Shown: positions 5,503-60,917 of the stretch, one piece after another
Numbering within the stretch: the stretch's first letter is position 1
How the letters are laid out: every line of letters begins with the position of its first letter
NCBI GenBank assembly: GCA_963704905.1
Contig: CAVPHZ010000001.1
Coordinates: 1,089 to 65,088, forward strand
Origin: Candidatus Chisholmbacteria bacterium
GTDB taxonomy: Bacteria > Patescibacteriota > Microgenomatia > UBA1400 > Chisholmbacteraceae
Length of the DNA stretch: 64,000 bases
Direction of reading: 5' to 3'
Made by a program: the position numbers and the translations under genes
Notes under the pieces: model-generated
Seen by the model: only the letters and a program-made list of their open reading frames with translations
The model's database searches: none
Told to the model about the DNA's origin: nothing

Positions 5503-5573
5503 ACTAACTGAAATTTAAATTTGGTTTAAATATACTTCGAAGATCTTTAATTATTTCTATAAAATCACTTACT

Positions 5574-5605
5574 AAGGTGTTCGAAATAACTAAACGTGGG
5601 GTCAC
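5574..5605. repeat. conserved intergenic motif, copy B (AAGGTGTTCGAAATAACTAAACGTGGGGTCAC)
   Basis: Near-identical to copies at 1840-1878, 7969-8000 and 12521-12558. Confidence 0.8.
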
Positions 5606-5641
5606 TTCACATTCGTTCAGTGCAAGCATAAGGCAATTATA

Positions 5642-6628: not shown

Positions 6629-7405
6629 TCATCTTTTAGGAGGCAGAGGAATCAACAAACTCGTTTTTCTTCTGTACTCTTGATACTTCACATTTTCAAC
6701 ATATTTCTGATCATACTTTTTTTCCAGTAGAGGAATTCCACTTACAAACATTAAAATATACGTGATAAAGATTGGACCGATTATTGTCAACCAAGCCAAT
6801 CCTTGTAATGTTGGCATGACAATAAGGTAAATACCCCACCAAACAAGCATCTCCCCAAAGTAATTCGGATGTCTCGAATATTTCCATAACCCCGATTGAA
6901 TCCACATATCTTTGTTCTTTGGATTGCTTTTGAATTTAAACTTCTGTCCGTCAGCAATTGATTCAAGTAATAATCCCATTAACCACACAATCATTCCCAT
7001 AATCATAATGGAACTGACTGGGATGCTATCAGATTGAGTGAGTATCAATATTGCAGGTAGCATGATTATCCAGACTGCTATCCCTTGAAATACCCAAAAC
7101 TGTAAGAAAGACAACAAATTTTCCCTCTTGTCGTCAAAACGACTATCCTTTTTAATTCTTAAAATCCGTATAACAAGGTAGGATATCAATCTTATTGCCC
7201 ATATGATTATCATCAATGTAATGAGTATTTGAATTGGAAAATAGGTTTGGTTGGTAAAGTTCAAAAAAAGTGCAAGTATAATGAAAGTTATGCCATAGGT
7301 AAAATCGGTAAACTTATCAGTTTTTAGAGCAAAGGCAACAATAAAAAACAAAAGGTTAATGCCCAAACTCAAGGCAAATGTAAGACTATATGGATTCATG
7401 AACAT
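6629..7405 (-). CDS. DUF1295 family membrane protein (steroid 5-alpha-reductase / ICMT-like fold)
   Basis: Multi-TM protein with the motif WKYSRHPNYFGEMLVWWG typical of the DUF1295 / methyltransferase-like family. Confidence 0.6.
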   Translation of the reverse strand: MFMNPYSLTFALSLGINLLFFIVAFALKTDKFTDFTYGITFIILALFLNFTNQTYFPIQILITLMIIIWAIRLISYLVIRILRIKKDSRFDDKRENLLSFLQFWVFQGIAVWIIMLPAILILTQSDSIPVSSIMIMGMIVWLMGLLLESIADGQKFKFKSNPKNKDMWIQSGLWKYSRHPNYFGEMLVWWGIYLIVMPTLQGLAWLTIIGPIFITYILMFVSGIPLLEKKYDQKYVENVKYQEYRRKTSLLIPLPPKR

Positions 7406-7439
7406 GGCTATACTTTAACAAAAACCTAGGGAAAATAAT

Positions 7440-7871
7440 ATGCGACTATGGAGTCTACATCCTAAATATCTTGATACTCAAGGCCTAGTTGCTGTATGGA
7501 GAGAAGGATTGCTGGCAAAAAAGGTGTTGGAAAGAAAAACTAAAGGTTATACTAAACATCCTCAACTGATTAGATTTAAAAAGCATCCATTCCCTTTAAA
7601 AGCCGTTGATCATTACTTGATTTATATATTCTATGAATCTGAAAATAGAGGTTTTCATTTTAGGCGGAGTAAAGTTGAAAAAGCACAAGATAAAATTAAT
7701 ACAATAACAGTTACTTCAGGTCAAATTGAATACGAGTTTAATCATTTAAAGAAGAAGTTAAGTCAAAGAAACCCTATTTTGTATAAAAATCTACTTATGA
7801 CTAAAAATATCGACACCCATCCTCTATTTGAGGTTATTAAGGGCAATGTCGAAACGTGGGAAAAAATATAA
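7440..7871 (+). CDS. pyrimidine dimer DNA glycosylase (endonuclease V / Pyr_excise-like)
   Basis: N-terminus MRLWSLHPKYLDTQGLVAVWREGLLAKKVL resembles T4 endoV-type proteins (RINLxxxxELxDQHLxAExREL). Confidence 0.6.
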   Translation: MRLWSLHPKYLDTQGLVAVWREGLLAKKVLERKTKGYTKHPQLIRFKKHPFPLKAVDHYLIYIFYESENRGFHFRRSKVEKAQDKINTITVTSGQIEYEFNHLKKKLSQRNPILYKNLLMTKNIDTHPLFEVIKGNVETWEKI

Positions 7872-7943: not shown

Positions 7944-7968
7944 AATTATTACGAATATTTCTATAACT

Positions 7969-8000
7969 AAAGTGTTCGATATTATTAAACGTAGGGTCAC
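7969..8000. repeat. conserved intergenic motif, copy C (AAAGTGTTCGATATTATTAAACGTAGGGTCAC)
   Basis: Diverged copy with 5 substitutions, located between convergent genes. Confidence 0.7.
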
Positions 8001-8054
8001 TTGTTAATTTTGTGAAGTTCAGTGAATGGTGTTCAAGGTTATTCATAGGTTAGA

Positions 8055-8954: not shown

Positions 8955-10682
8955 TTATCCAAATGTAAAAGCAAATAGTTCTAGATTGTTATCTTGGAAG
9001 ATTAGCTTGAGAGTATGTTTTCCAGGACTATCTAAACGGATGAGTTTGTAGAGCCTGTCCTTATCCACAGTTATAATTCCATCATCTACGTCTGCCCCCT
9101 TGTTGGTGGCGTCAACCGTCTGGCCATCAAGTGTTACTTCAATCCTACCGGCGCCGTTTTTCGACCTCATGACAAGAAATACTTCACTGGCTTCAAAATT
9201 TAAAATCAATGATCCACCTTGAGTTGGCTTTGCATATTCTTCTCCGATTTCCCAAGTGCTGGTATACGCAAAGCGATTGGGAAGTAAAGTATTGGGAGCT
9301 GAATATTCTTGTGGTGCGTTTTGGATGATGCGCTCTGGTGATTGAAAGTATTCGATTCTACCATAGCCCAAATAGAGCTCCGGTGTACGAGCTGTAATCG
9401 TATATTCAGGATTATCAATAGTTGTTTGGTTAACTTCAGTACCTGCTTCTTTGAGTAATGTTTGTATCACTTTTTCTGTTTCGTCGTAATCACCTTCACC
9501 ATAGTGGTGGTAACGAATATTCCCCTTCGCATCGATAAGATATTTTGCAGGCCAGTAATGATTGTCGTATGCTCGCCAAGTTGCGTAGTCATTATCCTGC
9601 ATGATTGGGTACGTTAACTCAAAGTCGTTGACGGCATCTTTTAGATTGTTAATGTCTTTTTCAAATTCAAACTCAGGTGTATGGACACCAATAATTACAA
9701 GTCCTTCATCACCATACTTTTCATTCCAACTCTTAAGGTAAGGTAGTGTTCGGATGCAATTAATGCAGGTGTAGGTCCAAAAGTCGATCAGGACAACTTT
9801 TCCCCGCAATTGCTCAAGTGTGAGCGGATCGCTATTTACCCATTCTCCACCAGGTATGAGATTTGGCGCAGTTCCTTCCTCTTCGAGCATTTCAAACATT
9901 GGTCTTCCCTTCTCTTCTGATTTTCCATTTGCATCTCCACGAAGACTTTGGAGTTCTTTTTGCACTGCTTGGTTTTCTTCCAACTTTGTCAGGCCTGTTC
10001 CATAGCTTGGGAAAGCATCTAGCACGAAGGTCTGAATTTTTCGATCGTAGTTAAAGTGTATGCCAATTGCTGTCAGGATCATCAGCATTCCAAAGGCTTT
10101 TTGAATTTTGCCAGTGTTGCTCACAAGCGTAGGTACTCGTGAGAGGAGTCCCTTTCCACCATAGAGAATTGCGAGCATCGGTAGTGCTGTGCCTACTGAA
10201 TACGCAAGCGTAATCATGAAGCTGGCTTGGGTAACCTCTCCGGTTAAAGCAAGTGAAATTACCGAGGCAAGAATTGGCCCAACACATGGGGTCCATATGA
10301 GACCAATACTTATACCGACAAGAAGACCGCCAAAAAAACCTTGGCCGCTTGTTGATGTTGGAACGATACCTGATAATTTTGAAAAGAGTTTTTCCATCTC
10401 GAGCTGAAATCGAGGTACGAGCAGGCTTACACCAAACAACCCCACAACGAGCACGGAGAGCACGCGTAAACTGTCAGCAGGTATACCAATTGCTTTCACA
10501 ATTGCAGTGAGAAATAAGGTGAAAAAGGTGAAGCTGATAATAAATCCCGTGACTACACCAAAAGGCCGTCTTTTACCACCTGAAACAGAACTCGATAACA
10601 CTATCGGGAGAATAGGTAAGATGCAAGGAGAAAGTATAGTTACAACTCCTGCCAAAAATGCAAAGCTAATGAGAACAATCAT
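8955..10682 (-). CDS. CcdA/DsbD-type thiol-disulfide transporter fused to a TlpA-like thioredoxin domain and a C-terminal beta-rich domain
   Basis: N-terminal 6-8 TM region with two Cys (LSPCILPIL, WTPCVGPIL) as in the DsbD / cytochrome c biogenesis family. Then WTYTCINC (CxxC) in a thioredoxin fold. A ~150-aa C-terminal domain is of unknown type. Confidence 0.8.
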   Translation of the reverse strand: MIVLISFAFLAGVVTILSPCILPILPIVLSSSVSGGKRRPFGVVTGFIISFTFFTLFLTAIVKAIGIPADSLRVLSVLVVGLFGVSLLVPRFQLEMEKLFSKLSGIVPTSTSGQGFFGGLLVGISIGLIWTPCVGPILASVISLALTGEVTQASFMITLAYSVGTALPMLAILYGGKGLLSRVPTLVSNTGKIQKAFGMLMILTAIGIHFNYDRKIQTFVLDAFPSYGTGLTKLEENQAVQKELQSLRGDANGKSEEKGRPMFEMLEEEGTAPNLIPGGEWVNSDPLTLEQLRGKVVLIDFWTYTCINCIRTLPYLKSWNEKYGDEGLVIIGVHTPEFEFEKDINNLKDAVNDFELTYPIMQDNDYATWRAYDNHYWPAKYLIDAKGNIRYHHYGEGDYDETEKVIQTLLKEAGTEVNQTTIDNPEYTITARTPELYLGYGRIEYFQSPERIIQNAPQEYSAPNTLLPNRFAYTSTWEIGEEYAKPTQGGSLILNFEASEVFLVMRSKNGAGRIEVTLDGQTVDATNKGADVDDGIITVDKDRLYKLIRLDSPGKHTLKLIFQDNNLELFAFTFG

Positions 10683-10694
10683 ACATCAAACTTT

Positions 10695-10985
10695 CTACCT
10701 ATCCCCCATCATGATGTCATTGTCATCCATCATTGTTTCACCTTCCGATGTCGCCTCTTTATCCTCCATCATTGCGTCATCGTCTTCCATCATTTTATCT
10801 TCATTATCCATCATTGCGTCATCGTCTTCCATCATTTTATCTTCATTCTCCATCATTTCTTCTGATGTTTCTCCAGTTGTTGTCGGAGCAAATGCAGATT
10901 GCTGAGATTGAAGTAATACATAACCAAAGACTAGCGCGATAATTCCAATGATTACTATTATTGTTGTCTTATTCATATATATCAC
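10695..10985 (-). CDS. membrane-anchored acidic Met-Met repeat protein
   Basis: One N-terminal TM helix, then MMENEDKMMEDDDAMMDNEDKMMEDDDAMMEDKEATSEGETMMDDNDIMMGD with nine Met-Met dipeptides. Encoded by a ~45-bp tandem repeat at 10761-10852. Lies 12 bp upstream of the CcdA-Trx gene on the same strand. Confidence 0.55.
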   Translation of the reverse strand: MIYMNKTTIIVIIGIIALVFGYVLLQSQQSAFAPTTTGETSEEMMENEDKMMEDDDAMMDNEDKMMEDDDAMMEDKEATSEGETMMDDNDIMMGDR

Positions 10986-11797: not shown

Positions 11798-11825
11798 AAT
11801 TAACTCCATGTAGGGTCACGATTAT
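11798..11825. repeat. partial fifth copy of the intergenic motif (TAACTCCATGTAGGGTCACGAT)
   Basis: Matches the 3' half of copy A (TAACTAAACGTGGGGTCACGAT) at 18 of 22 nt. Confidence 0.45.
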
Positions 11826-12384: not shown

Positions 12385-12520
12385 ATGTTAATTCCTTATT
12401 ATCTTATTACTTGAATAAGTGGATATGTTATTCTTTCAAAAAAATAAACTGGTCATGTGCCTTAATCTACATCCAGCATTAAGGCTGGGAGAATATCCTT
12501 TTTATAATAATACAACCTTT

Positions 12521-12558
12521 TTCAACAGGGTGTTCGAAATAACAAAACGCGGGGGACC
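12521..12558. repeat. conserved intergenic motif, copy D (TTCAACAGGGTGTTCGAAATAACAAAACGCGGGGGACCA)
   Basis: Shares the extended 5' part with copy A. Followed at 12578-12593 by a 16-nt perfect palindrome TTCTAGAGCTCTAGAA. Confidence 0.75.
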
Positions 12559-12793
12559 ATCGTCTTGAGTCAATACTTTCTAGAGCTCTAGAACACAAGA
12601 AATCAGTATTACCTTCTCTTGTTTTCTTAGTAATTCCTGATATACTGATATCATTAGTTCTTTTGAAATACTTGAACTACTAGCTTAATTTTTTCTAATT
12701 GATCTTCTTTGGTTATTAAATGAAATCTCCCCTAGAAGCGAATAGACAAATTCCCAAGTAGTGATTCAAAAAGTGAATTGGAGGTGAAAAGAA

Positions 12794-16591: not shown

Positions 16592-17143
16592 ATGAATAAA
16601 GCGTTACGACTCCTCCTGATAACTGATAGTTTCATCCTCATTTCATCAGCTATGTTCGGTCCTATTTATGCAATCTTTGTACAAGAGATTGGCGGTGGGA
16701 TTTTAGAGGCGAGTTGGGCAGTTGCAGTATTTTCATTTATTACTGGTATTTCACTATATTTTTTCGCACGGTTTGAAGATCAGATGAAAGAACAGGAGCT
16801 CGCGCTAGTATTCGGATACTTCGTTTTGGCAATTGGGTATTTTGGTTATCTATTCGTTCACTCACTTCCCTCTCTTCTTCTTATGCAAGCAATTCTAGGT
16901 ATTGGAAAGGCAGTCTATACTCCTGCATATGATGGGTTGTATTCGATTCATCTTGATAGGAAGAAGGCTGCATCTCAATGGGGAGCTTGGGAGATGATGG
17001 CATATATCATTTCGGGTATTGGTGCTGTTGTTGGTGGACTACTTGCAAATGCATTCGGATTTAGTATTCTTTTTGTCATCATGGGAATGCTATGTGTGTT
17101 TGGAGCTTTTGTAATCTGGCTGCAACCGAGAAAGGTATTATGA
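16592..17143 (+). CDS. 6-TM membrane protein (MFS half-transporter-like)
   Basis: 183 aa, six predicted TM helices. Stop overlaps the protease start (ATGA). Confidence 0.45.
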   Translation: MNKALRLLLITDSFILISSAMFGPIYAIFVQEIGGGILEASWAVAVFSFITGISLYFFARFEDQMKEQELALVFGYFVLAIGYFGYLFVHSLPSLLLMQAILGIGKAVYTPAYDGLYSIHLDRKKAASQWGAWEMMAYIISGIGAVVGGLLANAFGFSILFVIMGMLCVFGAFVIWLQPRKVL

Positions 17144-17580
17144 ATCAGAATTATCCTAAACCACTTGAGATCAAACGCATTAAATTAGACCCGTCGAAAA
17201 AGCGGGTATCAGTATTTGGGAATTCGCTCGTGGATAAAGATTCAATTTCGATTCGAATTCTCCCTGAATTACGAAAACGATTTCCGCACATAGAGTTCTT
17301 GGTAGAGGATCCGACAGAAACACTCAATCCACCGGATGACGAATGGTGGATTATTGACGCTGCTGAAGGAGTGAAACGAGTTGAGCTGATAGAAGATCTT
17401 ACGAAAATAGAGCCGACACAAAGTACCAGTGTTCATGATTATGATCTTTCTTTCGACTTATTTCTTCTGCAAAAACTTGGTAAACTTCCAAAAATGAAGA
17501 TAGTGATTGTGCCGTTTGAGTTTACTGTGAAAAAAGCTGTGAAAGAAGTTACAAGAATCCTCAAAGCCAGCGGATTTTAA
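17140..17580 (+). CDS. [NiFe]-hydrogenase maturation endopeptidase (HycI/HyaD-like)
   Basis: VFGNSLVDKDSISIRILPEL..IIDAAEG..VHDYDL parallels the HycI motifs VGNSMMGDDGAG / IVDA / HNMPL. Start set at the internal ATG at 17140 overlapping the upstream stop. The track ORF begins at 17092. Confidence 0.55.
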   Translation: MNQNYPKPLEIKRIKLDPSKKRVSVFGNSLVDKDSISIRILPELRKRFPHIEFLVEDPTETLNPPDDEWWIIDAAEGVKRVELIEDLTKIEPTQSTSVHDYDLSFDLFLLQKLGKLPKMKIVIVPFEFTVKKAVKEVTRILKASGF

Positions 17581-37716: not shown

Positions 37717-38040
37717 ATGACACCAATTTATGCACAATCAGTTAATGTTGATAAGCCTATTGGCTTTCAAATCACTGATATTGGTACGCTCGTAAGCGGA
37801 ACGATTGGTGTCGCTTTTTTAATCACTGGAATCATCATTTTTGGATTTATTGTCTTCGGCGGCATACTCATGATCACTTCGTCAGGAGATAAGACTCAAA
37901 CCGAACGGGGAAGAAATGCAATCTCTGGAGCTTTGGTTGGATTAGGTATCGTTGCAGCTGCGTGGGCGATCATGTTGTTGGTTAATTACTTCTTTGGCGT
38001 GAATTTTACCGGCTCGCTTTCGCTTCCGACGTTTTACTAA
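37717..38040 (+). CDS. small two-TM pilin-like protein (CPR-type T4SS pilin-like family)
   Basis: GIIIFGFIVFGGILMITSSGDKTQTERGRNAISGALVGLGIVAAAWAIMLLVNYF matches the G-G-I-x-x-I-T-S-x-G...A...I...A-W-A-I pattern of TrbC/VirB2-like pilins common in Patescibacteria. Confidence 0.45.
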   Translation: MTPIYAQSVNVDKPIGFQITDIGTLVSGTIGVAFLITGIIIFGFIVFGGILMITSSGDKTQTERGRNAISGALVGLGIVAAAWAIMLLVNYFFGVNFTGSLSLPTFY

Positions 38041-38367: not shown

Positions 38368-38441
38368 TGCCGGGTGGTGAAATGGTATCACGGCTGGCTC
38401 TGAACCAGTTATTCTAGGTTCGAATCCTAGCCCGGCAGCCA
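38368..38441 (+). tRNA. tRNA-Gln (anticodon CTG)
   Basis: Manual fold: acceptor stem TGCCGGG/CCCGGCA with the U1-A72 pair typical of bacterial tRNA-Gln, D-arm GTGA-AATGGTA-TCAC, anticodon arm GCTGG-CTCTGAA-CCAGT with anticodon CTG, T-arm CTAGG-TTCGAAT-CCTAG, discriminator G, encoded CCA. Confidence 0.85.
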
Positions 38442-38508
38442 AATCGCGAACTCGGATTCGAACCTTCGTATTTCCATAATTGAAAAAGTATAAATTAAAG
38501 CATAATAT

Positions 38509-38787
38509 ATGAACATGGGTTCATATAATTGCTGTGTTCCAGAAACCAAAGAGTTTACACAAGTAAGTTCTCTATCAACACTGTTAAAGTTGGTAGGTGA
38601 GGAAAGTAGGTTGAAGCTTCTGTGCCTGCTTCATCAAGGAGAGCATTGTGTGTGTGAAATGCTAGAGCACTTTGACATGTCGCAAAGTTTGGTGTCGCAT
38701 CATTTGTCGGATTTAAAGGAAGCTGGATTAGTGAGCATCCGAAAAGATGGAAGACAAGTACATTACTCACTTACTGCCAAGAGGTGA
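38509..38787 (+). CDS. ArsR/SmtB-family metalloregulator
   Basis: LLCLLHQGEHCVCEMLEHFDMSQSLVSHHLSDLKEAGLV is a winged HTH with Cys pairs at the ArsR metal-site position. Confidence 0.85.
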   Translation: MNMGSYNCCVPETKEFTQVSSLSTLLKLVGEESRLKLLCLLHQGEHCVCEMLEHFDMSQSLVSHHLSDLKEAGLVSIRKDGRQVHYSLTAKR

Positions 38788-38814
38788 TAAAGTTACTAAT
38801 TCGATATTTTCTAT

Positions 38815-39111
38815 GTGAGAGGAAAAGATATGAAAATCCAGGTTTTAGGTTCAGGTTGTACTACCTGTAAAAAGTTGTATGAAACTACCAAAGAAGCAGT
38901 TAAGGACATGGAAGGTGAATATGAAGTTGAATATGTCACTGGAACAGATGGCACTCAGAAAATAATCGAGCTAGGTGCTATGAATAGTCCGGTACTGGCA
39001 GTAAATGACCAAATTGCTATGACTGGTTTTACTCCCGACTTAAGAAGATTCAAGACAAAATTAAGAAACTTACCTAATGGATATTTTCGCCCCAATTCAA
39101 GCCTTGTCTGA
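38815..39111 (+). CDS. thioredoxin-like protein (redox-active disulfide protein 2 family)
   Basis: MKIQVLGSGCTTCKKLYE with a CxxC at the N-terminus of a short Trx fold, commonly paired with ArsR and arsenic permeases. The C-terminal 20 aa overlap the next ORF, so the end is uncertain. Confidence 0.6.
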   Translation: MRGKDMKIQVLGSGCTTCKKLYETTKEAVKDMEGEYEVEYVTGTDGTQKIIELGAMNSPVLAVNDQIAMTGFTPDLRRFKTKLRNLPNGYFRPNSSLV

Positions 39112-39643
39112 TGAGGTCACCTACCAGTGGCTGAGTATTACTCAAGGCTCGTATTTAGGGAAAGCGGTCAACTTTTTTATCTATGATGTGATCAAGATTG
39201 GTCTACTTTTGATTGCCATCAATTACCTGATGGCGATGGTTAGATACTATTTACCTGTAGCTAAAATAAACCAAGTATTAACCGGTAAAAACTGGTATGG
39301 GCTGGACTATTTAGTGGCAGCACTACTGGGCGTGGTTACCCCTTTTTGTTCTTGCTCATCGATCCCACTGTTTATCGGTTTTTTATCTGCTGGTATCCCA
39401 ATTGGCGTGACCTTTACATTCCTCATTAGCTCCCCTTTGGTTAATGAAGCTTCACTCTTTCTATTTCCGGCTATGTTTGGTCTCAAAATCACCCTGCTTT
39501 ACAACCTGATCGGTATGCTGGTGGCAATCATCGGTGGCTGGTTGATAGGTAAGTTATCCATGGAGCGGTTTATCCAACCCGAGTTTAAAAGCATTACATC
39601 AACTGCAAAAATACAAGAAGATGAAGGTGATAAAACGCCATGA
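39077..39643 (+). CDS. ArsP-like permease (DUF318 / PF03773), N-terminal half
   Basis: TPFCSCSSIPLF motif of organoarsenical permeases. Ends in a hydrophilic linker, and the stop overlaps the next start (ATGA). Confidence 0.6.
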   Translation: MDIFAPIQALSDEVTYQWLSITQGSYLGKAVNFFIYDVIKIGLLLIAINYLMAMVRYYLPVAKINQVLTGKNWYGLDYLVAALLGVVTPFCSCSSIPLFIGFLSAGIPIGVTFTFLISSPLVNEASLFLFPAMFGLKITLLYNLIGMLVAIIGGWLIGKLSMERFIQPEFKSITSTAKIQEDEGDKTP

Positions 39644-40056
39644 GAAAATTGGCAGTATCTTGGTGGCATGATGGCATGACTATCACCAAGCAAATATTTC
39701 CATATGTGGTACTAGGTGTGGCAATCGGTGCTATAATTCACGGCTTTGTACCTGATAGCTTTGTGAGTCAGTACCTCAGCACTGACGCCTGGTGGGTCAT
39801 TCCCGTTGCAGTTATTGCCGGAGTACCTCTTTACGCCAATTCAGTCAGTGTCATCCCAATTGTAGAAGCATCCGTAGGCAAAGGCGTCATGATTGGTACG
39901 GCTTTAGCTTTTATGACTGCCATTGTGACTCTATCAATCCCGGAGGCATTGATGCTAAAAAAAGCCATGAAGTGGCAGCTACTGGCTGCGTTTTTTGGGA
40001 TTACTATTATTGGCATTATGATTATCGGCTATGTATTTAATGCCATATCAACTTAA
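39640..40056 (+). CDS. ArsP-like permease, C-terminal half (separate ORF)
   Basis: 4-TM continuation. The combined length of 326 aa equals a single typical family member. Confidence 0.6.
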   Translation: MRKLAVSWWHDGMTITKQIFPYVVLGVAIGAIIHGFVPDSFVSQYLSTDAWWVIPVAVIAGVPLYANSVSVIPIVEASVGKGVMIGTALAFMTAIVTLSIPEALMLKKAMKWQLLAAFFGITIIGIMIIGYVFNAIST

Positions 40057-40097
40057 GCCTTGGGCAGAGCTGGAAGGGTTAGAGTTGTTGCTTGTTG

Positions 40098-40134
40098 AGT
40101 AAAATAGGTTCGAATAGCGTCCGAGGTCGCCAGC
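40098..40134 (+). repeat. T-loop-like repeat R1 (TAAAATAGGTTCGAATAGCGTCCGAGGTCGCCAGC)
   Basis: 35-nt core identical to R2 at 41479-41513. It is related to R3 and R4, not to the tRNA-Gln 3' end. Contains GGTTCGAAT, and an inverted segment AGGTTC...GAACCT spans 40106-40164. Confidence 0.8.
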
Positions 40135-40193
40135 CCCCTCAAGTAGCCTGAATCACGGTCAGAACCTCTCTTAGGAATTGGTATACTTTTTGG

Positions 40194-41348
40194 ATGAGCC
40201 TTCATAAAAATGTAAGATTGCTGACTTGGTTTAATTTTTTCTTGGATTTCAGATTGTATGCTCCGATCATGGCAATATACTTTTCTAGGGTTACTGGGTC
40301 GTATGCTCTGGGAATGAGTGTGTTTTCTATTACCATGCTGTCAGCTGCTATTTTTGAGATACCCACAGGAGTGTATTCAGACATAATTGGAAGAAAGAAA
40401 ACTATAGTTTTGGGTGCAGTAACAACACTCGTTTCAGTAGTAATGTATGCTATTGGGACTATTTATTGGGTGCTGTTGTTTGGGGCAGTGTTTGAGGGAT
40501 TAGCCAGATCATTTTATAGTGGCAACAATGATTCGATGCTGCATGATAGCCTGGCTGAACAAGGTCAGGAGAAAGAATATGCCCAATACTATGGAAAAAC
40601 AAGTTCGGCATATCAAATAGCATTGGCGATAGTGGCGGTATTAGGGTCAGTAATTGCGTATTTTTCATTTGGGCTGGTGATGTGGTTGTCGGTGATACCG
40701 GCGTTGATTGGATTGATATTCAGCATGGAGATGGTAGAGCCGAAGGTGGTGAGTGAAAAGAGTGCTAATGTATATGTTCATTTAAAGGAAGCGGTGAATA
40801 ATTTTAGAAAAAATGATCGGCTAAGAAAAATAAGTATTGCTTCTATCGTGGGTTATGTAAAAGGTGAGTCTGCACATTTATTCTTACCAGTATATTTTGA
40901 ACTCCTAATTCCAATATGGGCAATAGGCGTGGTGAGATTTTTTACTCACGCTGGAGCTGCGATTAGCTTTTATTCAAGCGGGAAATTGATAAAAAAATAT
41001 GGGGAATTGAAAATGCTTTTGTCAGGTACAGGCTATAGTTTTGTGAGTAACATTTTTGCCTTGCTACTAGCCTCTGTTATCTCGCCATTTGTTATAGCTA
41101 CAAATAGCTTGTTTTTTGGGGTAGTTACATCTTCTAAGAGTTCGTTGCTGCAAAAAGAGTACAGTCAATCACAGAGATCAACTATGGGATCGCTAAACTC
41201 TTTGGCTGGAGGAATTGTGTTTGCAATGGTGGTATTTTTGCTGGGGCTAGTGGCAGATATGCTGACGCCAACAAGAGCGCTGATACTACTGCAATTTTTA
41301 GGATTGATACCACTAGTTATTTGGTGGAGGTTGTATCGGAATGACTAG
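40194..41348 (+). CDS. MFS-type transporter (12 TM)
   Basis: 384 aa hydrophobic protein. GVYSDIIGRKKTIVLG fits the MFS loop 2-3 motif. Flanked by R1 and R2. Confidence 0.55.
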   Translation: MSLHKNVRLLTWFNFFLDFRLYAPIMAIYFSRVTGSYALGMSVFSITMLSAAIFEIPTGVYSDIIGRKKTIVLGAVTTLVSVVMYAIGTIYWVLLFGAVFEGLARSFYSGNNDSMLHDSLAEQGQEKEYAQYYGKTSSAYQIALAIVAVLGSVIAYFSFGLVMWLSVIPALIGLIFSMEMVEPKVVSEKSANVYVHLKEAVNNFRKNDRLRKISIASIVGYVKGESAHLFLPVYFELLIPIWAIGVVRFFTHAGAAISFYSSGKLIKKYGELKMLLSGTGYSFVSNIFALLLASVISPFVIATNSLFFGVVTSSKSSLLQKEYSQSQRSTMGSLNSLAGGIVFAMVVFLLGLVADMLTPTRALILLQFLGLIPLVIWWRLYRND

Positions 41349-41477
41349 ATAGGTGATTCATGACTTCTAAAACGAATCCGAACAGTAAAAAGTTTGGATA
41401 TGAAAATGAAACAAAACACCTAGGGTTTGGTACATTCATATGGTAGCGCAGGTATATAATGAATGCTACCTACTTGA

Positions 41478-41513
41478 CTAAAATAGGTTCGAATAGCGTC
41501 CGAGGTCGCCAGC
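41478..41513 (+). repeat. T-loop-like repeat R2
   Basis: Direct repeat of R1, 35 of 35 nt. Confidence 0.8.
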
Positions 41514-41551
41514 ACGTCTCAGGATTTCTTCGGATTTGATAAAATTATTGT

Positions 41552-42016
41552 ATGAAAACTTCATCAAAAAAGTATTCACAACTTTTTCTTCTGCTAACAG
41601 ATGCTGTTAAAGCATTCTTAAATGAAGTCAATAGACATAGTCTTTCGGATAAGGCTACCGAAGAGTGGACTGTTAAAGATGAATTATGTCATATTGCATT
41701 TTGGCACGATTATTATGCCCAAAATTATGCTGCATTAGCCGCAGGCACTAAACCTTTTCTTTTTGTCTCTAAAGGTGGCTCGACCCGAAATCAAGAAGGA
41801 GTTAATAAACTAAAACGCAAGTCTCAAAAGTATCTGGTTACTTTGTTAAATAATGCTCAAATAAGTTTGTATGACAACATTGTAGTAAAACAGGTTCCCA
41901 AAATGACCTACATAGTTGGAAAAGAGTATAAAACAGAAAAGTTTCTTGAAATAATAATCGGGCACATTAATAGACATACAATACTGGTAAGACGCGCAAA
42001 AAAGATTAACAAGTAA
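41552..42016 (+). CDS. hypothetical protein (DinB/ClbS-like four-helix bundle?)
   Basis: 154 aa. WTVKDELCHIAFWHDYYAQN is suggestive of the DinB_2/ClbS fold. Weak call. Confidence 0.3.
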   Translation: MKTSSKKYSQLFLLLTDAVKAFLNEVNRHSLSDKATEEWTVKDELCHIAFWHDYYAQNYAALAAGTKPFLFVSKGGSTRNQEGVNKLKRKSQKYLVTLLNNAQISLYDNIVVKQVPKMTYIVGKEYKTEKFLEIIIGHINRHTILVRRAKKINK

Positions 42017-42063
42017 ATGTATTAATATAAGGTTGTGTAGAACCCGAAAGTAATAATTCAAAG

Positions 42064-42140
42064 AAATAGGTTCGAACTCTGTCCACGGTTGGCAGCACGA
42101 CTGGACAACCATGTAACCGTACCCTTGCGGTTCAGGCCTT
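42064..42140 (+). repeat. T-loop-like repeat R3 (AAATAGGTTCGAACTCTGTCCACGGTTGGCAGCACGA plus structured tail)
   Basis: Shares AAATAGGTTCGAA, GTCC and CAGCACG blocks with R1 and R2. Followed by hairpin AACCG-TACCCTTG-CGGTT. Confidence 0.6.
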
Positions 42141-42236
42141 CAAAAACCCCGAATAACTGAATCTTTTCCTTGATGTGAGAAGCGTCTATTGCTACTGAGA
42201 AAGCCGGAATGGGCTAATTTTATGAGAGCAATCCCT

Positions 42237-42848
42237 CTAATGATCGTGAAGTTCTTTTTCTTTTAAGATTTCGCCTTTAACCGCTTTTTCCACTGCATGA
42301 ATAAATATTACATATGATTCTATAAATTTTCTTCCAGATGAGACATCATCAACTCCGTAGTTAGATTTCTCCTGAAGTGTATGAAAAAGGTGGGCAATAA
42401 CCTTTTTGTTTCCAGGATTCTTGATATGTTTGATGACATCATCTAACGTTTTTGTTTTCACTGCTGTATCGGCCATGGCAATTTCCGGCTCAACCGAACC
42501 GGCTGGTTTGATACCCTCATACTCTGCTCCTTCTCCCTCGCGATGAATCTTTACTAACGTTTCGAAAAACTCCATATCTGCTTGGTCTTTTTCTTCTTTG
42601 GATTTAGCCTTTTTCCTTTTATCTCTGGCTCTTTTTAACGCTTTTCTGATCTCTACTTCGTTTTCCGGTTTAACCCAAATAAGAACATAATTAACGTTTT
42701 CAGTATTAAGAGCTTTTCTGGCTGCGTTGACCACAGGGCCATCCAGTGTATCGCAGTGGGCTGACACCTTGTCCGGTGATACGAAAGATACAACTACAAA
42801 AAATATAAGGACTGTAAGCAGCCGGAAAAATGTTTTCTTGTTTTTCAT
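42237..42848 (-). CDS. secreted hypothetical protein
   Basis: Signal peptide (FFVVVSFVSPDKVSA), a Lys-rich central region, 203 aa. Confidence 0.4.
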   Translation of the reverse strand: MKNKKTFFRLLTVLIFFVVVSFVSPDKVSAHCDTLDGPVVNAARKALNTENVNYVLIWVKPENEVEIRKALKRARDKRKKAKSKEEKDQADMEFFETLVKIHREGEGAEYEGIKPAGSVEPEIAMADTAVKTKTLDDVIKHIKNPGNKKVIAHLFHTLQEKSNYGVDDVSSGRKFIESYVIFIHAVEKAVKGEILKEKELHDH

Positions 42849-43111
42849 ATCCTAAGAGTAAATATAAGAAAAAAATATAAAATCGTCAAGATTATTGCGA
42901 AAAACATATAAATCTTTTAATACTGTCTCATTTGTCTCATTTAGCCTGGATGTGAGACAATCGAATAGTTGAGTTATCAACGAAGTTTGCAAGCTACGCT
43001 TATAAGGACCCAAAGGGTCCCGTGCGTCATGCTCAACCAAGAATTTTAACCTTGAAAATAGCCACCGAAGTGGGATAGTTTAAACCTTTGGTTAAATAAA
43101 AATGAAATATT

Positions 43112-43459
43112 ATGACAAATAAAATCCTTAACATTACGCTTATAAAAATTACACATACTGTAATTTGGCTAATAATGGCATCAGCAGTGTTTTATATCTT
43201 ATATTGTGGCATCAGCGGCAATTTGAATAGAACACTATATTTCACCATTTGTTTGATCCTCTTCGAAATTGTAGTGCTTATACTCAATCATTGGGCTTGT
43301 CCACTCACAATCGTAGCCAAAAAGATAAAACCTGACTGGAAAGACGGAGACGACATTTTTCTGCCAAAATGGCTGGCAATACATAATAAAATGATTTTTG
43401 GAACCCTATTTATTATTGGAATTGTTGTAGTCATTTTCAGACTATTATTGAAATTTTGA
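43112..43459 (+). CDS. small 3-4 TM membrane protein
   Basis: 115-aa hydrophobic ORF. Confidence 0.4.
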   Translation: MTNKILNITLIKITHTVIWLIMASAVFYILYCGISGNLNRTLYFTICLILFEIVVLILNHWACPLTIVAKKIKPDWKDGDDIFLPKWLAIHNKMIFGTLFIIGIVVVIFRLLLKF

Positions 43460-43498
43460 AACAAAAACAAACGACATGTGGTTGGCATTTACGGATAT

Positions 43499-43530
43499 AA
43501 AATAGTTTTGAACCCTGTCCACAGTTCGCT
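43499..43530 (+). repeat. T-loop-like repeat R4 (AAAATAGTTTTGAACCCTGTCCACAGTTCGCT), degenerate
   Basis: Same block order as R3, with substitutions. Confidence 0.5.
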
Positions 43531-43598
43531 ACTGAATATTTTCCTAAACAGAAGTTTAATCCGAGCTATCTATCGACCAGGCTCTAAATGAAAGTAGC

Positions 43599-45173
43599 TT
43601 ATTGAAATCCTTCTTTTATCTCTTCTGTAACGTCGAGAAATTCAAATGGAAGCTTATCATCGTTGAAGTAGCTTTTATCGGGAAGTAATTCAAAATCTGC
43701 TCCGAAGTAGGTATTAAAGAGTATTGGAAATGTATTTACCGGTGTAATCGAGTCATAAAAGTATTCCTCAGCAAGGGGTGCGTAATAGGCGTAGAGGATA
43801 TACATACGTTCCTTGACTCCTTCAATCGGTGGTGGTCTGGTCCACTTTCCTGGATGTCCAAGCGTAGTAGCTGATCCATGATCTGATTGAATAATAATAA
43901 CTGGTGGGTTACTAGATCGATTTACTATTTTCTCTACCGTTTCAAGCGTGCGGGTTGATGCGAATTGTAGCTGTTTTAAATAGTTGACCCGGTCTGAAAA
44001 GGAATCACCAGTAAGCTCAAGCACTTGATCTGGAATGGGATTGCACCGTTTTCATCAAAAAGGTATGGAGGGTGGGGAATGTTGAGGTGAGCGAGGGTGA
44101 ATTTGTTTCCTCTCTGATACGGAATCTCTGTCAGCTGGTCAAACGTATATTGCACATTGGCTCTTGCTTGATCGGCTAAAGCGTTTTTGATGAATGGAGA
44201 AAGTGCAGTTGTTTGGAGAAAAACTATGTAGAATTCATTAATTGCAAAGTGCTGCCCAAAAAACGTGAAGGTATTTCCATTACTGTAATTGATATCGGCT
44301 ATCTCAAGATTATCCGTCGGCCCAATCCCTGAAGCAAAGTTGATGATTGTGTATCCATGACTTTTTAGAAACTGTGCTGCATGATTTTGGTGAATCAATT
44401 GATTGGCAAAGCGAAAATCAGTTGTATCGTTCTCTAAGACATCCGCATACTCATTGATATACACAAAATTCAGGCTAGAGGAAAGCGAAAATGGTGTGTG
44501 AGCATAATTACTTTTTGCATTTCTGGCAACTCGGAAACCTAAATTCTCAAGACCTTCTATAAAATCGTTGTTATCAAAGTAAAATATTTTTTCCAACGTA
44601 TCGCTACGTGCATAGGCATCAAGAATTATGTAATAGATGTCAGGACTTACGCTTTGCTCTGAGATGCGTAGGCTTGATTCATTTTCAGTGCTGTTTAGTT
44701 GTTGCTTCACAGTGGTTTCATTGCTGTAGATAGAAATGACTTGAAACAGAATCAAGGTAAGAGAGGCAATATTCAAAAAGTGATTGACCTTTATTCTTGA
44801 CTGCGATGATTTTTTTAGCTTGATTGCAACAGCAGTTAAAACAATGATCATAAGCGGTATGAGAATTTTGTGAGGACCGATCACTAATCCTTCCCCAATT
44901 GGAATAAATATATTTTTTAATAACGATGCGATGTGGCCATAGGAGAAAAATATACCTATGATTACCGATGAGAATATCGCACTCTTCACCCAAGATTTGA
45001 ACAGCACTTTTCCACTTAACCATAGGAGGAGATGCTCCGGTGAGTGCAAAAATGATTGGCTGAAATATTATCTGAATTCGCATTTCTTCTTGATTATGCG
45101 AGTAGAAAAATAATAATGGATAGATAGCGAATAGGAGCGGATGAACGATGATATTTTTTATTATTTGCTTCAT
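43599..45173 (-). pseudogene. membrane-anchored sulfatase / alkaline-phosphatase superfamily enzyme interrupted by two frameshifts
   Basis: Three overlapping minus-strand ORFs in different frames: an N-terminal TM region (44718-45173), a TM plus catalytic N-lobe (43976-45049, YIILDAYARSD) and a C-lobe (43599-44024, IIIQSDHGSATTLGHPGK). Frame changes lie near 45045 and near an A5 run at about 44030. Confidence 0.5.
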
Positions 45174-47506: not shown

Positions 47507-47552
47507 GTTGTTCGAAATCCTCCCATTGGGATAGCGGAACCTTCGTGTTTCC
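47507..47552. repeat. divergent relative of the GTTCGAAAT-type intergenic motif (GTTGTTCGAAATCCTCCCATTGGGATAGCGGAACCTTCG)
   Basis: Shares GTTCGAAAT with motif copies A-D, and GGAACCTTCG with the sequence following tRNA-Gln. Lies upstream of gene 47586. Confidence 0.3.
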
Positions 47553-47585
47553 AGTAAACTCGATTCACTTCAAATACTTGATATA

Positions 47586-59776: not shown

Positions 59777-60017
59777 TAAATGCTTAGTGAAAGTAAAAAA
59801 TATTAGCTCTCCCTCCCAGGACGAACTCAAGATATGGAACCTTTTTTAAAGTGAATTCGTATATTGATTTTCTTCTGGCTTCTTCGTAATATGTCTCTAA
59901 GAAGTTGTGTTTAAGGAATCTGGTGAAATTCCAGAACTGTGCCGCAACTGTAATCCGACTTAAAGCTCGGTAAGTCAGAAAACTAACAACTTCTAGTATC
60001 CCGAGCAGGAGAAATTC

Positions 60018-60917
60018 ATGTCGAAAGAACTTCATCAATTCACGCAAGCTGTACTAGAATTTCCCCCTCCGCAACGCTTTGAAGAACTCGCATCTGAAAT
60101 TCATGAGACTAATCGCCTTCCCGATCCATATCTATTTGTGTTTGACGAGCAGACAAATCAGTTTATTACGCCAGCTGGAGAGTCTGTAGTTGATAACATT
60201 GTTACTGATTCGTACTTAGGTGCAGTTGAATATTCAGCATGGCAACGAATACAAGACTGGTCAAGTAACAATGCGTCTGGATTGGCGCTTTGGTTCAGCC
60301 CACCATTTGAAAGGGAAGGTTACGAAAATTCAAAATTTATTATTCATGAACTTTCGCTTCTGGAAACTGGAGAAAAAATTATTTTCAACAGAGCAGTTAT
60401 TTTGGACATCGAAGCTCAAGAGCTTCTCGATTTGGCAAATGCTCTGTCTTCAAAAAAAATCATGAATCCTGAAATGCTCCGTTCCCAACCGTTATTTCCA
60501 AATCTGCAAGATTTTCAACACTGGTTTGCAAATGAACTATCAGGAATTACTTATCAGACTGGGATTATAGAATCTGGGCGAGATCTACTTTTAAAACGGG
60601 AGGCTTATGCCTCAGCTCAGGATATTTATTCTTCAATTGCTATAGTTGGAGAAGATCTCTTTTCATCTCAAATGTACGCTGCTGCTGTTCGTGAAGCTGA
60701 AGATCGAGAACTTATTGGTGAACATTCAAGGAGCTGTCCACCTGGTCAGTCAAAACAATCTACAGCGTTTGAAAAAGCTCTGGAATACTCTTCGAATAGT
60801 AATGAGAAAAGGCTAAATTGTACTTGTCCATTCTGTAAAAAGAAGGTTACAGCTACCATTTTAAATAATAAAATTCACTGTCCAGAATGTAAGAAGAGTG
60901 TTCCTTATGAATGTTGA
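60018..60917 (+). CDS. hypothetical protein with a C-terminal zinc ribbon
   Basis: 299 aa. The C-terminus CTCPFCKKKVTATILNNKIHCPECKK has two CxxC pairs. The rest matches no family I can name. Confidence 0.45.
   Translation: MSKELHQFTQAVLEFPPPQRFEELASEIHETNRLPDPYLFVFDEQTNQFITPAGESVVDNIVTDSYLGAVEYSAWQRIQDWSSNNASGLALWFSPPFEREGYENSKFIIHELSLLETGEKIIFNRAVILDIEAQELLDLANALSSKKIMNPEMLRSQPLFPNLQDFQHWFANELSGITYQTGIIESGRDLLLKREAYASAQDIYSSIAIVGEDLFSSQMYAAAVREAEDRELIGEHSRSCPPGQSKQSTAFEKALEYSSNSNEKRLNCTCPFCKKKVTATILNNKIHCPECKKSVPYEC

Follow-up and report, generated by a model that had tools for sequence, protein, structure and literature searches.

A putative tRNA-Gln-anchored array of small gene cassettes with junction repeats resembling a tRNA 3ʹ end in a Patescibacteria genome

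We analyzed a 64,000-nucleotide (nt) stretch of a Candidatus Chisholmbacteria (Patescibacteria) genome (GCA_963704905.1, contig CAVPHZ010000001.1, positions 1,089 to 65,088), hereafter the window, in which a tRNA-Gln gene is followed by small groups of genes separated by a ~35-bp repeat, R. The segment, 38368-45173, is read here as a probable array of mobile gene cassettes. The tRNA-Gln(CTG) that would anchor it lies at 38368..38441 on the + strand (ARAGORN; Rfam tRNA, 65 bits) and is the single tRNA in the window. R1 (TAAAATAGGTTCGAATAGCGTCCGAGGTCGCCAGC, 40100..40134) lies 41 nt past the nearest stop codon and was matched by the R family profile at E 1.7e-10. R2 has the same sequence (41479..41513, E 1.4e-10), R3 (AAATAGGTTCGAACTCTGTCCACGGTTGGCAGC, 42064..42096, E 4.2e-13) is the nearest of the four to the family consensus, and R4 (AAATAGTTTTGAACCCTGTCCACAGTTCGCTAC, 43500..43532, E 1.4e-9) is the most diverged and the final R of the array. 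R1 and R2 are identical over 35 nt and 98% identical across 40 nt, and 40103-40134 equals 41482-41513 at 0 mismatches, with 0 matches expected in shuffles. All four copies are on the + strand inside 40.1-43.5 kb, and the profile, which matched them at E 1e-9 to 4e-13, found no further copy in the window. An earlier note on this DNA, made from the sequence alone, had described a tRNA-Gln(CTG) followed by four related repeats, and ARAGORN, Rfam, the repeat comparison and the family profile found them as claimed.

The array begins 13 nt past the end of tRNA-Gln. The first unit (38509..40056, + strand) carries an ArsR regulator (HTH_5, 38509-38787), a Thioredoxin_3 protein (38815-39111) and an ArsP_1 permease split into two overlapping open reading frames (ORFs; 39077-39643 and 39640-40056), and is followed by R1. 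An MFS transporter (40194..41348, +) precedes R2, and it was 42% identical to an MFS ORF of another locus, L006, that likewise has R behind it (blastp and locus map). The third unit (41514..42063, +) consists of a leader, a DinB/ClbS-like gene (41552-42016) and a trailer, and ends at R3. Between R3 and R4 lie a DUF6448 secreted protein with a signal-peptide-like N-terminus (42237..42848, Pfam 2.1e-47), which is on the − strand and thus inverted relative to the array, and a small hydrophobic ORF of 115 aa (43112..43459, +, from the ORF list), the cargo of the fourth cassette. The 5ʹ end of this last cassette is marked by a motif that we call arm3 (TTAACCTTGAAAATAGCCACCGAAGTGGGATAGTTTAAACCT, 43043..43091, +, profile E 1.4e-10). 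Each of the four R lies 37-129 nt behind the stop of a + strand gene. The ArsR, thioredoxin-like, ArsP-like, MFS and secreted-protein calls of the earlier note were all upheld by Pfam.

R belongs to a family that extends far beyond this genome. A degenerate pattern, AAATAGKTTYGAANNNNGTCCNNRGT, run against one genome from each species gave 12 matches, 7 of which were alike far beyond the pattern and yielded the consensus AAATAGGTTCGAACTCTGTCCACGGTTCGCAGC. Their hosts were metagenome-assembled genomes (MAGs) and single-amplified genomes of Patescibacteria (Gottesman-, Woese- and Saccharibacteria) together with low-GC MAGs labelled Gammaproteobacteria. A scan of metagenomes added 34 loci, chiefly from groundwater and sediment, nearly all scoring 35-50 bits against the profile. 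In total, the genome and metagenome collections held 49 copies of R at 30 bits or above in 39 unrelated low-GC loci, mostly of Patescibacteria; single loci are cited below by L numbers. The conservation exceeds the search pattern, for example in the free 3ʹ part TTCGCAGC, and R is among the best conserved non-coding sequences over dozens of unrelated contigs, which does not agree with the earlier suggestion of degenerate att scars. The half variants of R were seen in four pairings (TAGC with GCCAGC, TAGC with TTCGCAGC, CACT with GCCAGC, and CTCT with TTCGCAGC), and by comparison of these sequences the left and right halves assort independently. Viral contigs gave only chance-level matches to R (20 bits or less), and a cassette together with its R gave no blastn match in plasmid and phage collections; a phage or plasmid origin of R was rejected on these results. 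Within the searchable library, full-text literature searches brought up no account of the motif, nor of an integron or tRNA-cassette system in Patescibacteria.

The position of R relative to genes is equally regular. R starts at (T[AG]A)AAATAG, ends sharply behind GCAGC, and often holds the stop codon of the upstream gene. A same-strand ORF ended −12 to +70 nt before R in 30 of 44 distinct copies, vs 14% of random positions, and same-orientation arrays of R were present in L003, L005, L006, L007, L010, L051 and L059. A dispersed repeat of the repetitive extragenic palindromic or miniature inverted-repeat transposable element type, lying in spacers by chance, would also be short, intergenic and present in several copies, and the earlier note had named such a family as a possibility. 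R, however, occurs on one strand, with four copies clustered in 3.4 kb behind tRNA-Gln and none in the other 60 kb of the window; it forms no palindrome or hairpin, no terminal inverted repeats flank it, and no fewer than 10 independent loci link it to tRNA-Gln. A chance repeat of this kind is the least credible of the explanations that we considered.

The link to tRNA-Gln was seen in L007, L009, L010/L065, L051, L059, L067, L072, L077, L083, L097 and the window, where a tRNA-Gln (CTG or TTG) lies upstream of R on the same strand. Where R loci contain tRNA clusters, Gln is always the final tRNA ahead of the cassettes. This association was not built into the search, because the search pattern is unable to match real tRNA-Gln. 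R has AGGTTCGAA and the terminal GCAGC in common with tRNA-Gln, and it aligns with the T-loop-to-3ʹ-end part of other Patescibacteria tRNA-Gln genes apart from ~6 inserted bases (for example, GGTTCAAATCCCTGTCC-CCCAGCA in L065 against GGTTCGAACTCTGTCCACGGTTCGCAGCA in R). In view of these common blocks, the earlier note went too far in denying the repeats a match to the tRNA 3ʹ end. R is essentially unchanged among genomes with differing tRNA-Gln acceptor stems (CCCGGCA, TCCCCCA and CTCCCCA); therefore, R does not appear to be a copy of the local tRNA.

The same resemblance would be expected if R copies were passive scars, that is, displaced tRNA 3ʹ ends (attR remnants) left by successive larger integrase-bearing elements whose mobility genes have since been deleted, as in classical islands and tycheposons. 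Islands holding scattered partial tRNAs are documented (bioRxiv 10.1101/2020.12.28.424599). The T-loop region of tRNA-Gln recurs in degenerate form (GTTCGAAATCCTCCC) at 47510..47553 on the + strand, together with a piece of its downstream flank, GAACCTTCGTGTTTCCA, that matches 38461-38477 at 16 of 17 positions, and L065 contains an exact 15-nt duplication of the tRNA end. Passive scars, however, should copy the resident tRNA and then decay separately, whereas R is near-identical across differing acceptor stems, and with its constant ~6-nt insertion it could at no time have functioned as a tRNA end. Moreover, no integrase fragments lie between the R copies, and the units are single genes of 0.4-1.7 kb. 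We regard passive scars as unlikely, although they come closest among the alternatives. The copy at 47510-47553 may mark where the island formerly ended on its distal side; this assignment is weak and post hoc.

Comparison with related loci showed that homology breaks at the edges of R. The third cassette of the window and L007 707-1297 are 79.7% identical in DNA and 77% in protein. The homology sets in immediately behind ...CAGCAC, where R2 ends in the window and tRNA-Gln(TTG) has its 3ʹ end in L007, and stops on the final base of R. In L056 and L060, the sequences upstream of R are unrelated, the L056 gene being on the opposite strand, and from the first base of R on they are 99% identical. 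On the alignments, the breakpoints thus coincide exactly with the edges of R. Together with the finding of one cassette behind tRNA-Gln or R in other genomes, this supports the second of three earlier proposals, that of cassette recombination sites, with the repeats as junction or att-type sites.

R and tRNA-Gln could also be mere conserved anchors for RecA-mediated homologous recombination after DNA uptake, with no dedicated enzyme. The independent variation of sequences flanking R, the lack of any recombinase found and the cassette composition, which is the same as that of the host, are all consistent with this. A length of 33-35 bp is, however, marginal for efficient RecA-dependent exchange. 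The explanation also leaves unaccounted the conservation of a pseudo-tRNA end, the single orientation, the placing of cassettes exactly at the tRNA 3ʹ end and the analogous repeats at tRNA-Trp described below. We judge homologous anchors to be quite improbable.

The movement of single cassettes can be followed with the DinB-like gene. Its homologs reach 88% aa identity, whereas the closest homolog of the window's Era is at 71%. Among eight contexts, six were tRNA-Gln islands and two were tRNA-Trp islands. The gene lies directly behind tRNA-Gln in L007 and L092, behind R in a tRNA-Gln array in the window and L097, behind a degenerate R-like end and followed by R in L096, and 4.4 kb into a tRNA-Gln island in L093. 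In L094, from a different lineage, it is directly behind tRNA-Trp (6899-7465, 29 nt after the tRNA), and in L095 it is inside an array of at least seven same-strand repeats of ~40 nt. In L065, tRNA-Gln is followed by a single GIY-YIG nuclease gene with a perfect 15-nt duplicate of the tRNA 3ʹ end at its flank, the only exact duplication of this sort that was seen; therefore, single-gene insertions at the tRNA-Gln 3ʹ end do occur.

Two further explanations concern the structure of R. The earlier note had proposed folding the repeats in search of an attC-like bulged hairpin. R1-R4 with their flanks, folded as single-strand DNA, were no better than shuffles (z +1.16 to -1.48), and such a hairpin was rejected for R. 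Rfam 15, applied to the window at gathering and permissive thresholds, detected only the tRNA and a cobalamin riboswitch, and neither R nor arm3 had a match even at E up to 5. A 5-bp stem CGAAC/GTTCG within R was considered as a conserved structure and rejected, since natural variants disrupt it with no compensation.

If R acted in RNA, as a 3ʹ untranslated-region element such as tRNA-like punctuation, a processing or stability signal or an unusual terminator, its place tightly downstream of stops on the coding strand, with the stop sometimes within the motif, would be readily understood. R also contains the T-loop-like GGTTCGAA, and in some cassettes arm3 at the 5ʹ side and R at the 3ʹ side could pair across the transcript. 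On its own, however, R has no stable structure, no U-tract and no Rfam match, and the variants that break CGAAC/GTTCG are uncompensated. Between L056 and L060, the upstream gene differs, that of L056 being on the opposite strand, but R has remained attached to the downstream DNA; the specific link to tRNA-Gln, too, is left without explanation. An RNA-level element is thus also unlikely, and ranks behind passive scars.

A canonical integron remnant, that is, an attC cluster without integrase (CALIN), would share the same-orientation single-gene cassettes with a 3ʹ repeat each, and such a remnant, unlike an integron, does not need IntI beside the array. Several R copies of L006 have a ~45-nt arm3 motif (TTAGCCTTGAAAAT..CCACCGAAGTGGGACAGTTCGAACCT) behind them, with a tail that is the inverted head of R. 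There, R and arm3 together form a long imperfect hairpin (z -2.5 to -5.5) with AAC...GTT at its base, and such folding was confined to these L006 junctions. An attC site is a 55-140 nt imperfect hairpin with R''-L''/L'-R' pairing, extrahelical bases and the core sites RYYYAAC ... GTTRRRY. R1-R4, however, are unfolded, and no IntI was found. GTTCGAA misfits GTTRRRY, with a pyrimidine where a purine is required, the boundary is AAATAGGTTCGAAC...GCAGC, and R is conserved in sequence across phyla, unlike attC sites. Since 42 of 49 R copies have no inverted 3ʹ partner within 160 nt, the hairpin cannot be essential to R. A CALIN is therefore very improbable.

In L072 and L077, arm3 itself comes directly behind tRNA-Gln. 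The T-arm of the window's tRNA-Gln (AGGTTCGAATCC, 38416-38427, +) forms a perfect 12-bp inverted repeat with GGATTCGAACCT at 38454-38465, on either side of the tRNA 3ʹ end; the inverted T-loop reported earlier is therefore real, with its coordinates 1 off. GGATTCGAACCT is continued by TCGTATTTCCA (38454..38476, +). Comparison of the sequences downstream of tRNA-Gln genes, together with arm3 profile matches, indicates that this segment is a short leftover of the tail of the arm3 cassette 5ʹ-end motif.

The region behind tRNA-Gln behaves as a variable island, as the earlier note had supposed. The order Lon-Dtd-x-response regulator-histidine kinase-x-Era-tRNA-Gln is kept in relatives, and synteny ends at tRNA-Gln; L085 has no gene downstream of the tRNA in common with the window. 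Two independent metagenome contigs stop exactly at the tRNA-Gln 3ʹ end (L086, end 11726; L089, end 8299), and a third, L087, stops 93 nt after it, a pattern to be expected where assembly is interrupted by a cassette region that varies between strains. All genes from 38.4 kb up to the window's end are of accessory type (metal ATPase, DsbA, BlaI/BlaR1-like, rhodanese, AadA-like and ZIP); therefore, the flexible region probably extends past 45173. A compositional shift, which had been suggested as a check, was absent: GC was 0.386 in the region vs 0.390 in the window, and the tetranucleotide distance was unremarkable, with 7 of 58 equal-sized tiles further from the window profile.

We lean, on balance, toward the view that the segment is a tRNA-Gln-anchored, integron-like array of small mobile gene cassettes in a Patescibacteria chromosome, with junction sites that mimic the tRNA 3ʹ end. 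A cassette would open with a short leader that bears a -10-like element of its own, continue with one gene or mini-operon and a trailer of ~40-130 nt, and close with the ~35-bp R. R would be a conserved mimic of the T-loop-to-3ʹ-end part of tRNA-Gln with ~6 extra bases. We infer that site-specific recombination moves cassettes in and out, the R of a cassette recombining with either the resident tRNA-Gln 3ʹ end or an R that the array already contains, and that the joint lies at or near the common ...GCAGC end. The outcome would be tRNA-Gln, c1-R, c2-R, c3-R and c4-R in series. The recombinase, presumably a dedicated enzyme, would act in trans and not be encoded locally. The logic would be that of an integron, with a fixed entry point, one site per cassette and a single orientation, and the sites would be double-stranded pseudo-tRNA ends instead of attC hairpins. 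None of the rival explanations accounts jointly for the conservation across lineages, the constant extra bases compared with real tRNA ends, the single orientation, the linkage to tRNA-Gln and the breakpoints at the very edges of R.

Several results weigh against a tRNA-anchored array of this kind. No recombinase, transposase or integrase domain was found by Pfam in window ORFs of at least 250 aa, and no recombinase was seen within 38 kb upstream or 22 kb downstream; therefore, the putative integrated element has no visible machinery of its own. A Pfam scan of 71 large ORFs from R loci, which are each visible over 8-14 kb only, gave no integrase and no shared recombinase either. R lacks a clear inverted-arm pair around a 6-8 bp spacer, as found in classical tyrosine-recombinase core sites. 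Some cassettes are inverted or have no R of their own (DUF6448; L056 and L059). Because R is so conserved, its edges as breakpoints do not pinpoint the crossover, and homologous recombination within R would give the same picture. Circularized cassette contigs and pairs of empty and filled sites from one population were looked for and none was seen, and most R loci were gathered with a pattern derived from R and are a biased sample.

The only shared candidate in an all-against-all ORF comparison of the R loci was a small GIY-YIG family, present in six loci and absent from the window. Such genes, of ~90 aa, lie right next to tRNA-Gln or right behind R in L059 (2780-3126), L065 (2683-3120), L057 (minus strand, 2400-2990), L007 (224-713) and L055 (8793-9222). 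Their flanks are direct repeats of tRNA fragments: the 5ʹ half is duplicated in L059, the 15-nt 3ʹ end in L065 and ~20 nt in L057. A part in the mobility mechanism is conceivable, but we treated them as cargo or selfish passengers, not as the engine, because they are small insertions themselves, flanked by tRNA-fragment repeats.

The proposed array can be compared with known systems. Cis-mobilizable elements (CIMEs) are flanked by att sites, lack an integrase of their own, can be mobilized in trans, and accrete in tandem beside a tRNA or other target. They are decay products of integrative and conjugative or integrative and mobilizable elements, usually several kb long, with att sites identical to those of the parent element. 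The array would share with CIMEs the att-type flanks without an integrase and the tandem build-up beside a target gene, but it draws on a large, diverse pool of one-gene units with one conserved site in many lineages. With integrons and CALINs, it has in common the ordered, same-orientation and mostly single-gene cassettes with one conserved 3ʹ site each, the fixed entry at one end, the accessory cargo related to stress or resistance, and the occurrence of the same cassette in unrelated genomes. It differs in that its sites are ~35-bp pseudo-tRNA ends conserved in sequence instead of hairpins conserved in structure, that entry is at a tRNA 3ʹ end instead of attI next to intI, with no IntI found, that its cassettes appear to bear their own -10-like promoters, and that its hosts are Patescibacteria. 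The closest published analog is the tycheposon islands with partial tRNAs of Prochlorococcus (bioRxiv 10.1101/2020.12.28.424599); together with P4-type tRNA islands, they also start at a tRNA 3ʹ end, carry tRNA-derived repeats between cargo modules, place newer insertions closer to the tRNA, and are hypervariable between strains. Their repeats, however, are true partial copies of the resident tRNA, and the complete elements have a tyrosine recombinase with replication or packaging genes, whereas R keeps to one consensus whatever the lineage and carries a ~6-nt insertion, single genes make up the units, and the window shows no recombinase.

Repeats analogous to R were found at tRNA-Trp. In L095 (6928-13171; GCA_037975395.1, JBAWSR010000009.1), a Patescibacteria locus, the at least seven same-strand junction repeats of ~40 nt (AAAATAGAAGTTCCTGACATAGTTTACTAGCCCCTGCA) begin with AAATAG and end as the tRNA-Trp 3ʹ end of that genome (GCCCCTGC). 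Several of them are followed by a conserved promoter-like leader, TAGCTTCAGATGATATAAT, 7-9 nt ahead of ATG. Their plan is that of R, with the AAATAG start, GTTC, a spacer and an acceptor 3ʹ end, and they are 5-6 nt longer than the true tRNA segment. The likeness of the two sequence plans suggests a general principle, not a lone oddity.

Patescibacteria (the candidate phyla radiation) have tiny genomes with few recognizable mobile elements, and their acquisition of accessory genes is largely unexplained. We put forward, tentatively and as less probable than the array itself, that these bacteria possess a general gene-capture system not described before and functionally equivalent to an integron, in which one-gene cassettes with a pseudo-tRNA-3ʹ-end site would be inserted serially at particular tRNAs by a trans-acting enzyme and exchanged widely. 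R would serve tRNA-Gln and the L095 motif tRNA-Trp, and the D1 repeats described next perhaps another tRNA. If the sites were substrates of a dedicated enzyme, this would be a second, independent case of integron-style gene capture, with tRNA mimicry in place of folded attC DNA. It would also provide a compact system for site-specific integration whose target is universally conserved. The 33-35-bp junction site would offer a handle for the flexible gene pool in metagenomes, for assembly breaks at tRNA-Gln and for the search for the recombinase.

D1 is another same-strand intergenic repeat family of the window (GGTGTTCGAAATAACTAAACGTGGGGTCAC), at 1838-1883, 5565-5611, 7960-8004 and 12517-12564, with a partial copy at 11798-11822. 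It separates a MacAB-like efflux operon, a group of TspO, DUF2177, DUF1295 and pyrimidine-dimer glycosylase genes, a group of MsrA, MsrB and DsbD, and DUF1003. From GTTCGAA to its end, D1 spans 27 nt, as in R, and the end, GGGGTCAC, could mimic the acceptor end of a U1:A72 tRNA. The D1 repeats may mark a further array of such cassettes whose tRNA anchor lies outside the window. The TspO-DUF2177 pair of the D1 region has 70% DNA identity to genes of the tRNA-Gln/R island of L077.

Inspection by eye pointed to promoters at the cassette starts. Extended -10-like boxes (TGnTAnAAT) lie 4-7 nt before the start codons of the MFS (40178-40186) and DinB-like (41537-41545) genes, and the segments TGGTATACT (40178-40193), TGATAAAAT (41537-41551) and TGGTTAAAT (43079-43096) show -10-like boxes and no Shine-Dalgarno sequence; the box in TGATAAAAT, the leader of the third cassette, is 6 nt ahead of ATG. 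In L096 (2290-2322), a common leader, ATTTCTTCGGATTTGATAAAAT, precedes different genes. These features suggest leaderless mRNAs with promoters borne by the cassettes.

Some gene assignments were refined. For the protein of 41552-42016, earlier labelled DinB/ClbS-like, there was a TIGR03084 match at E 0.011, and two homologs matched PF11716 or PF08020; the window protein itself had no Pfam match, so the label is kept as a weak one. The 115-aa ORF at 43112..43459 matched no family in Pfam and NCBIfam scans. At 43599..45173 on the − strand, three overlapping ORFs in different frames (from the ORF list) agree with the single decayed gene reported before, but not with its description as sulfatase-like: Pfam, NCBIfam and PDB sequence searches were empty, and the ORFs gave just an SDHG-type motif and a match to phosphopentomutase at E 0.19. 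Two transporters are each split into consecutive ORFs, ArsP_1 (ATGA overlap at 39640-39643) and an MFS protein (16592-17143 and 17092-17580); 39077-40056 and 16592-17580 are either genuine two-piece genes or frameshifts.

Possible DNA-transfer genes were noted near the tRNAs. A small membrane protein just upstream of tRNA-Gln in the window (37717-38040) had a sub-threshold match to Mbov_0395, a pilin-like conjugal transfer family (E 1e-6, 28 bits vs a cut-off of 40). The tRNA-Gln island of L093 holds a TrwB/VirD4-like gene, and L094 has a gene resembling a type IV secretion system pilin near tRNA-Trp.

Elsewhere in the window, the cobalamin riboswitch (59888-60005, Rfam, 43 bits) lies directly upstream of an unassigned 299-aa ORF (60018-60917), which is unexpected in a reduced Patescibacteria genome. 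A 21-nt periodic repeat resembling TCATCGTCTTCCATCATTTTA, with at least five units, occupies 10696-10860 within or overlapping the ORFs of 10507-10985, and on the minus strand probably codes for a repetitive peptide that is acidic or rich in histidine.

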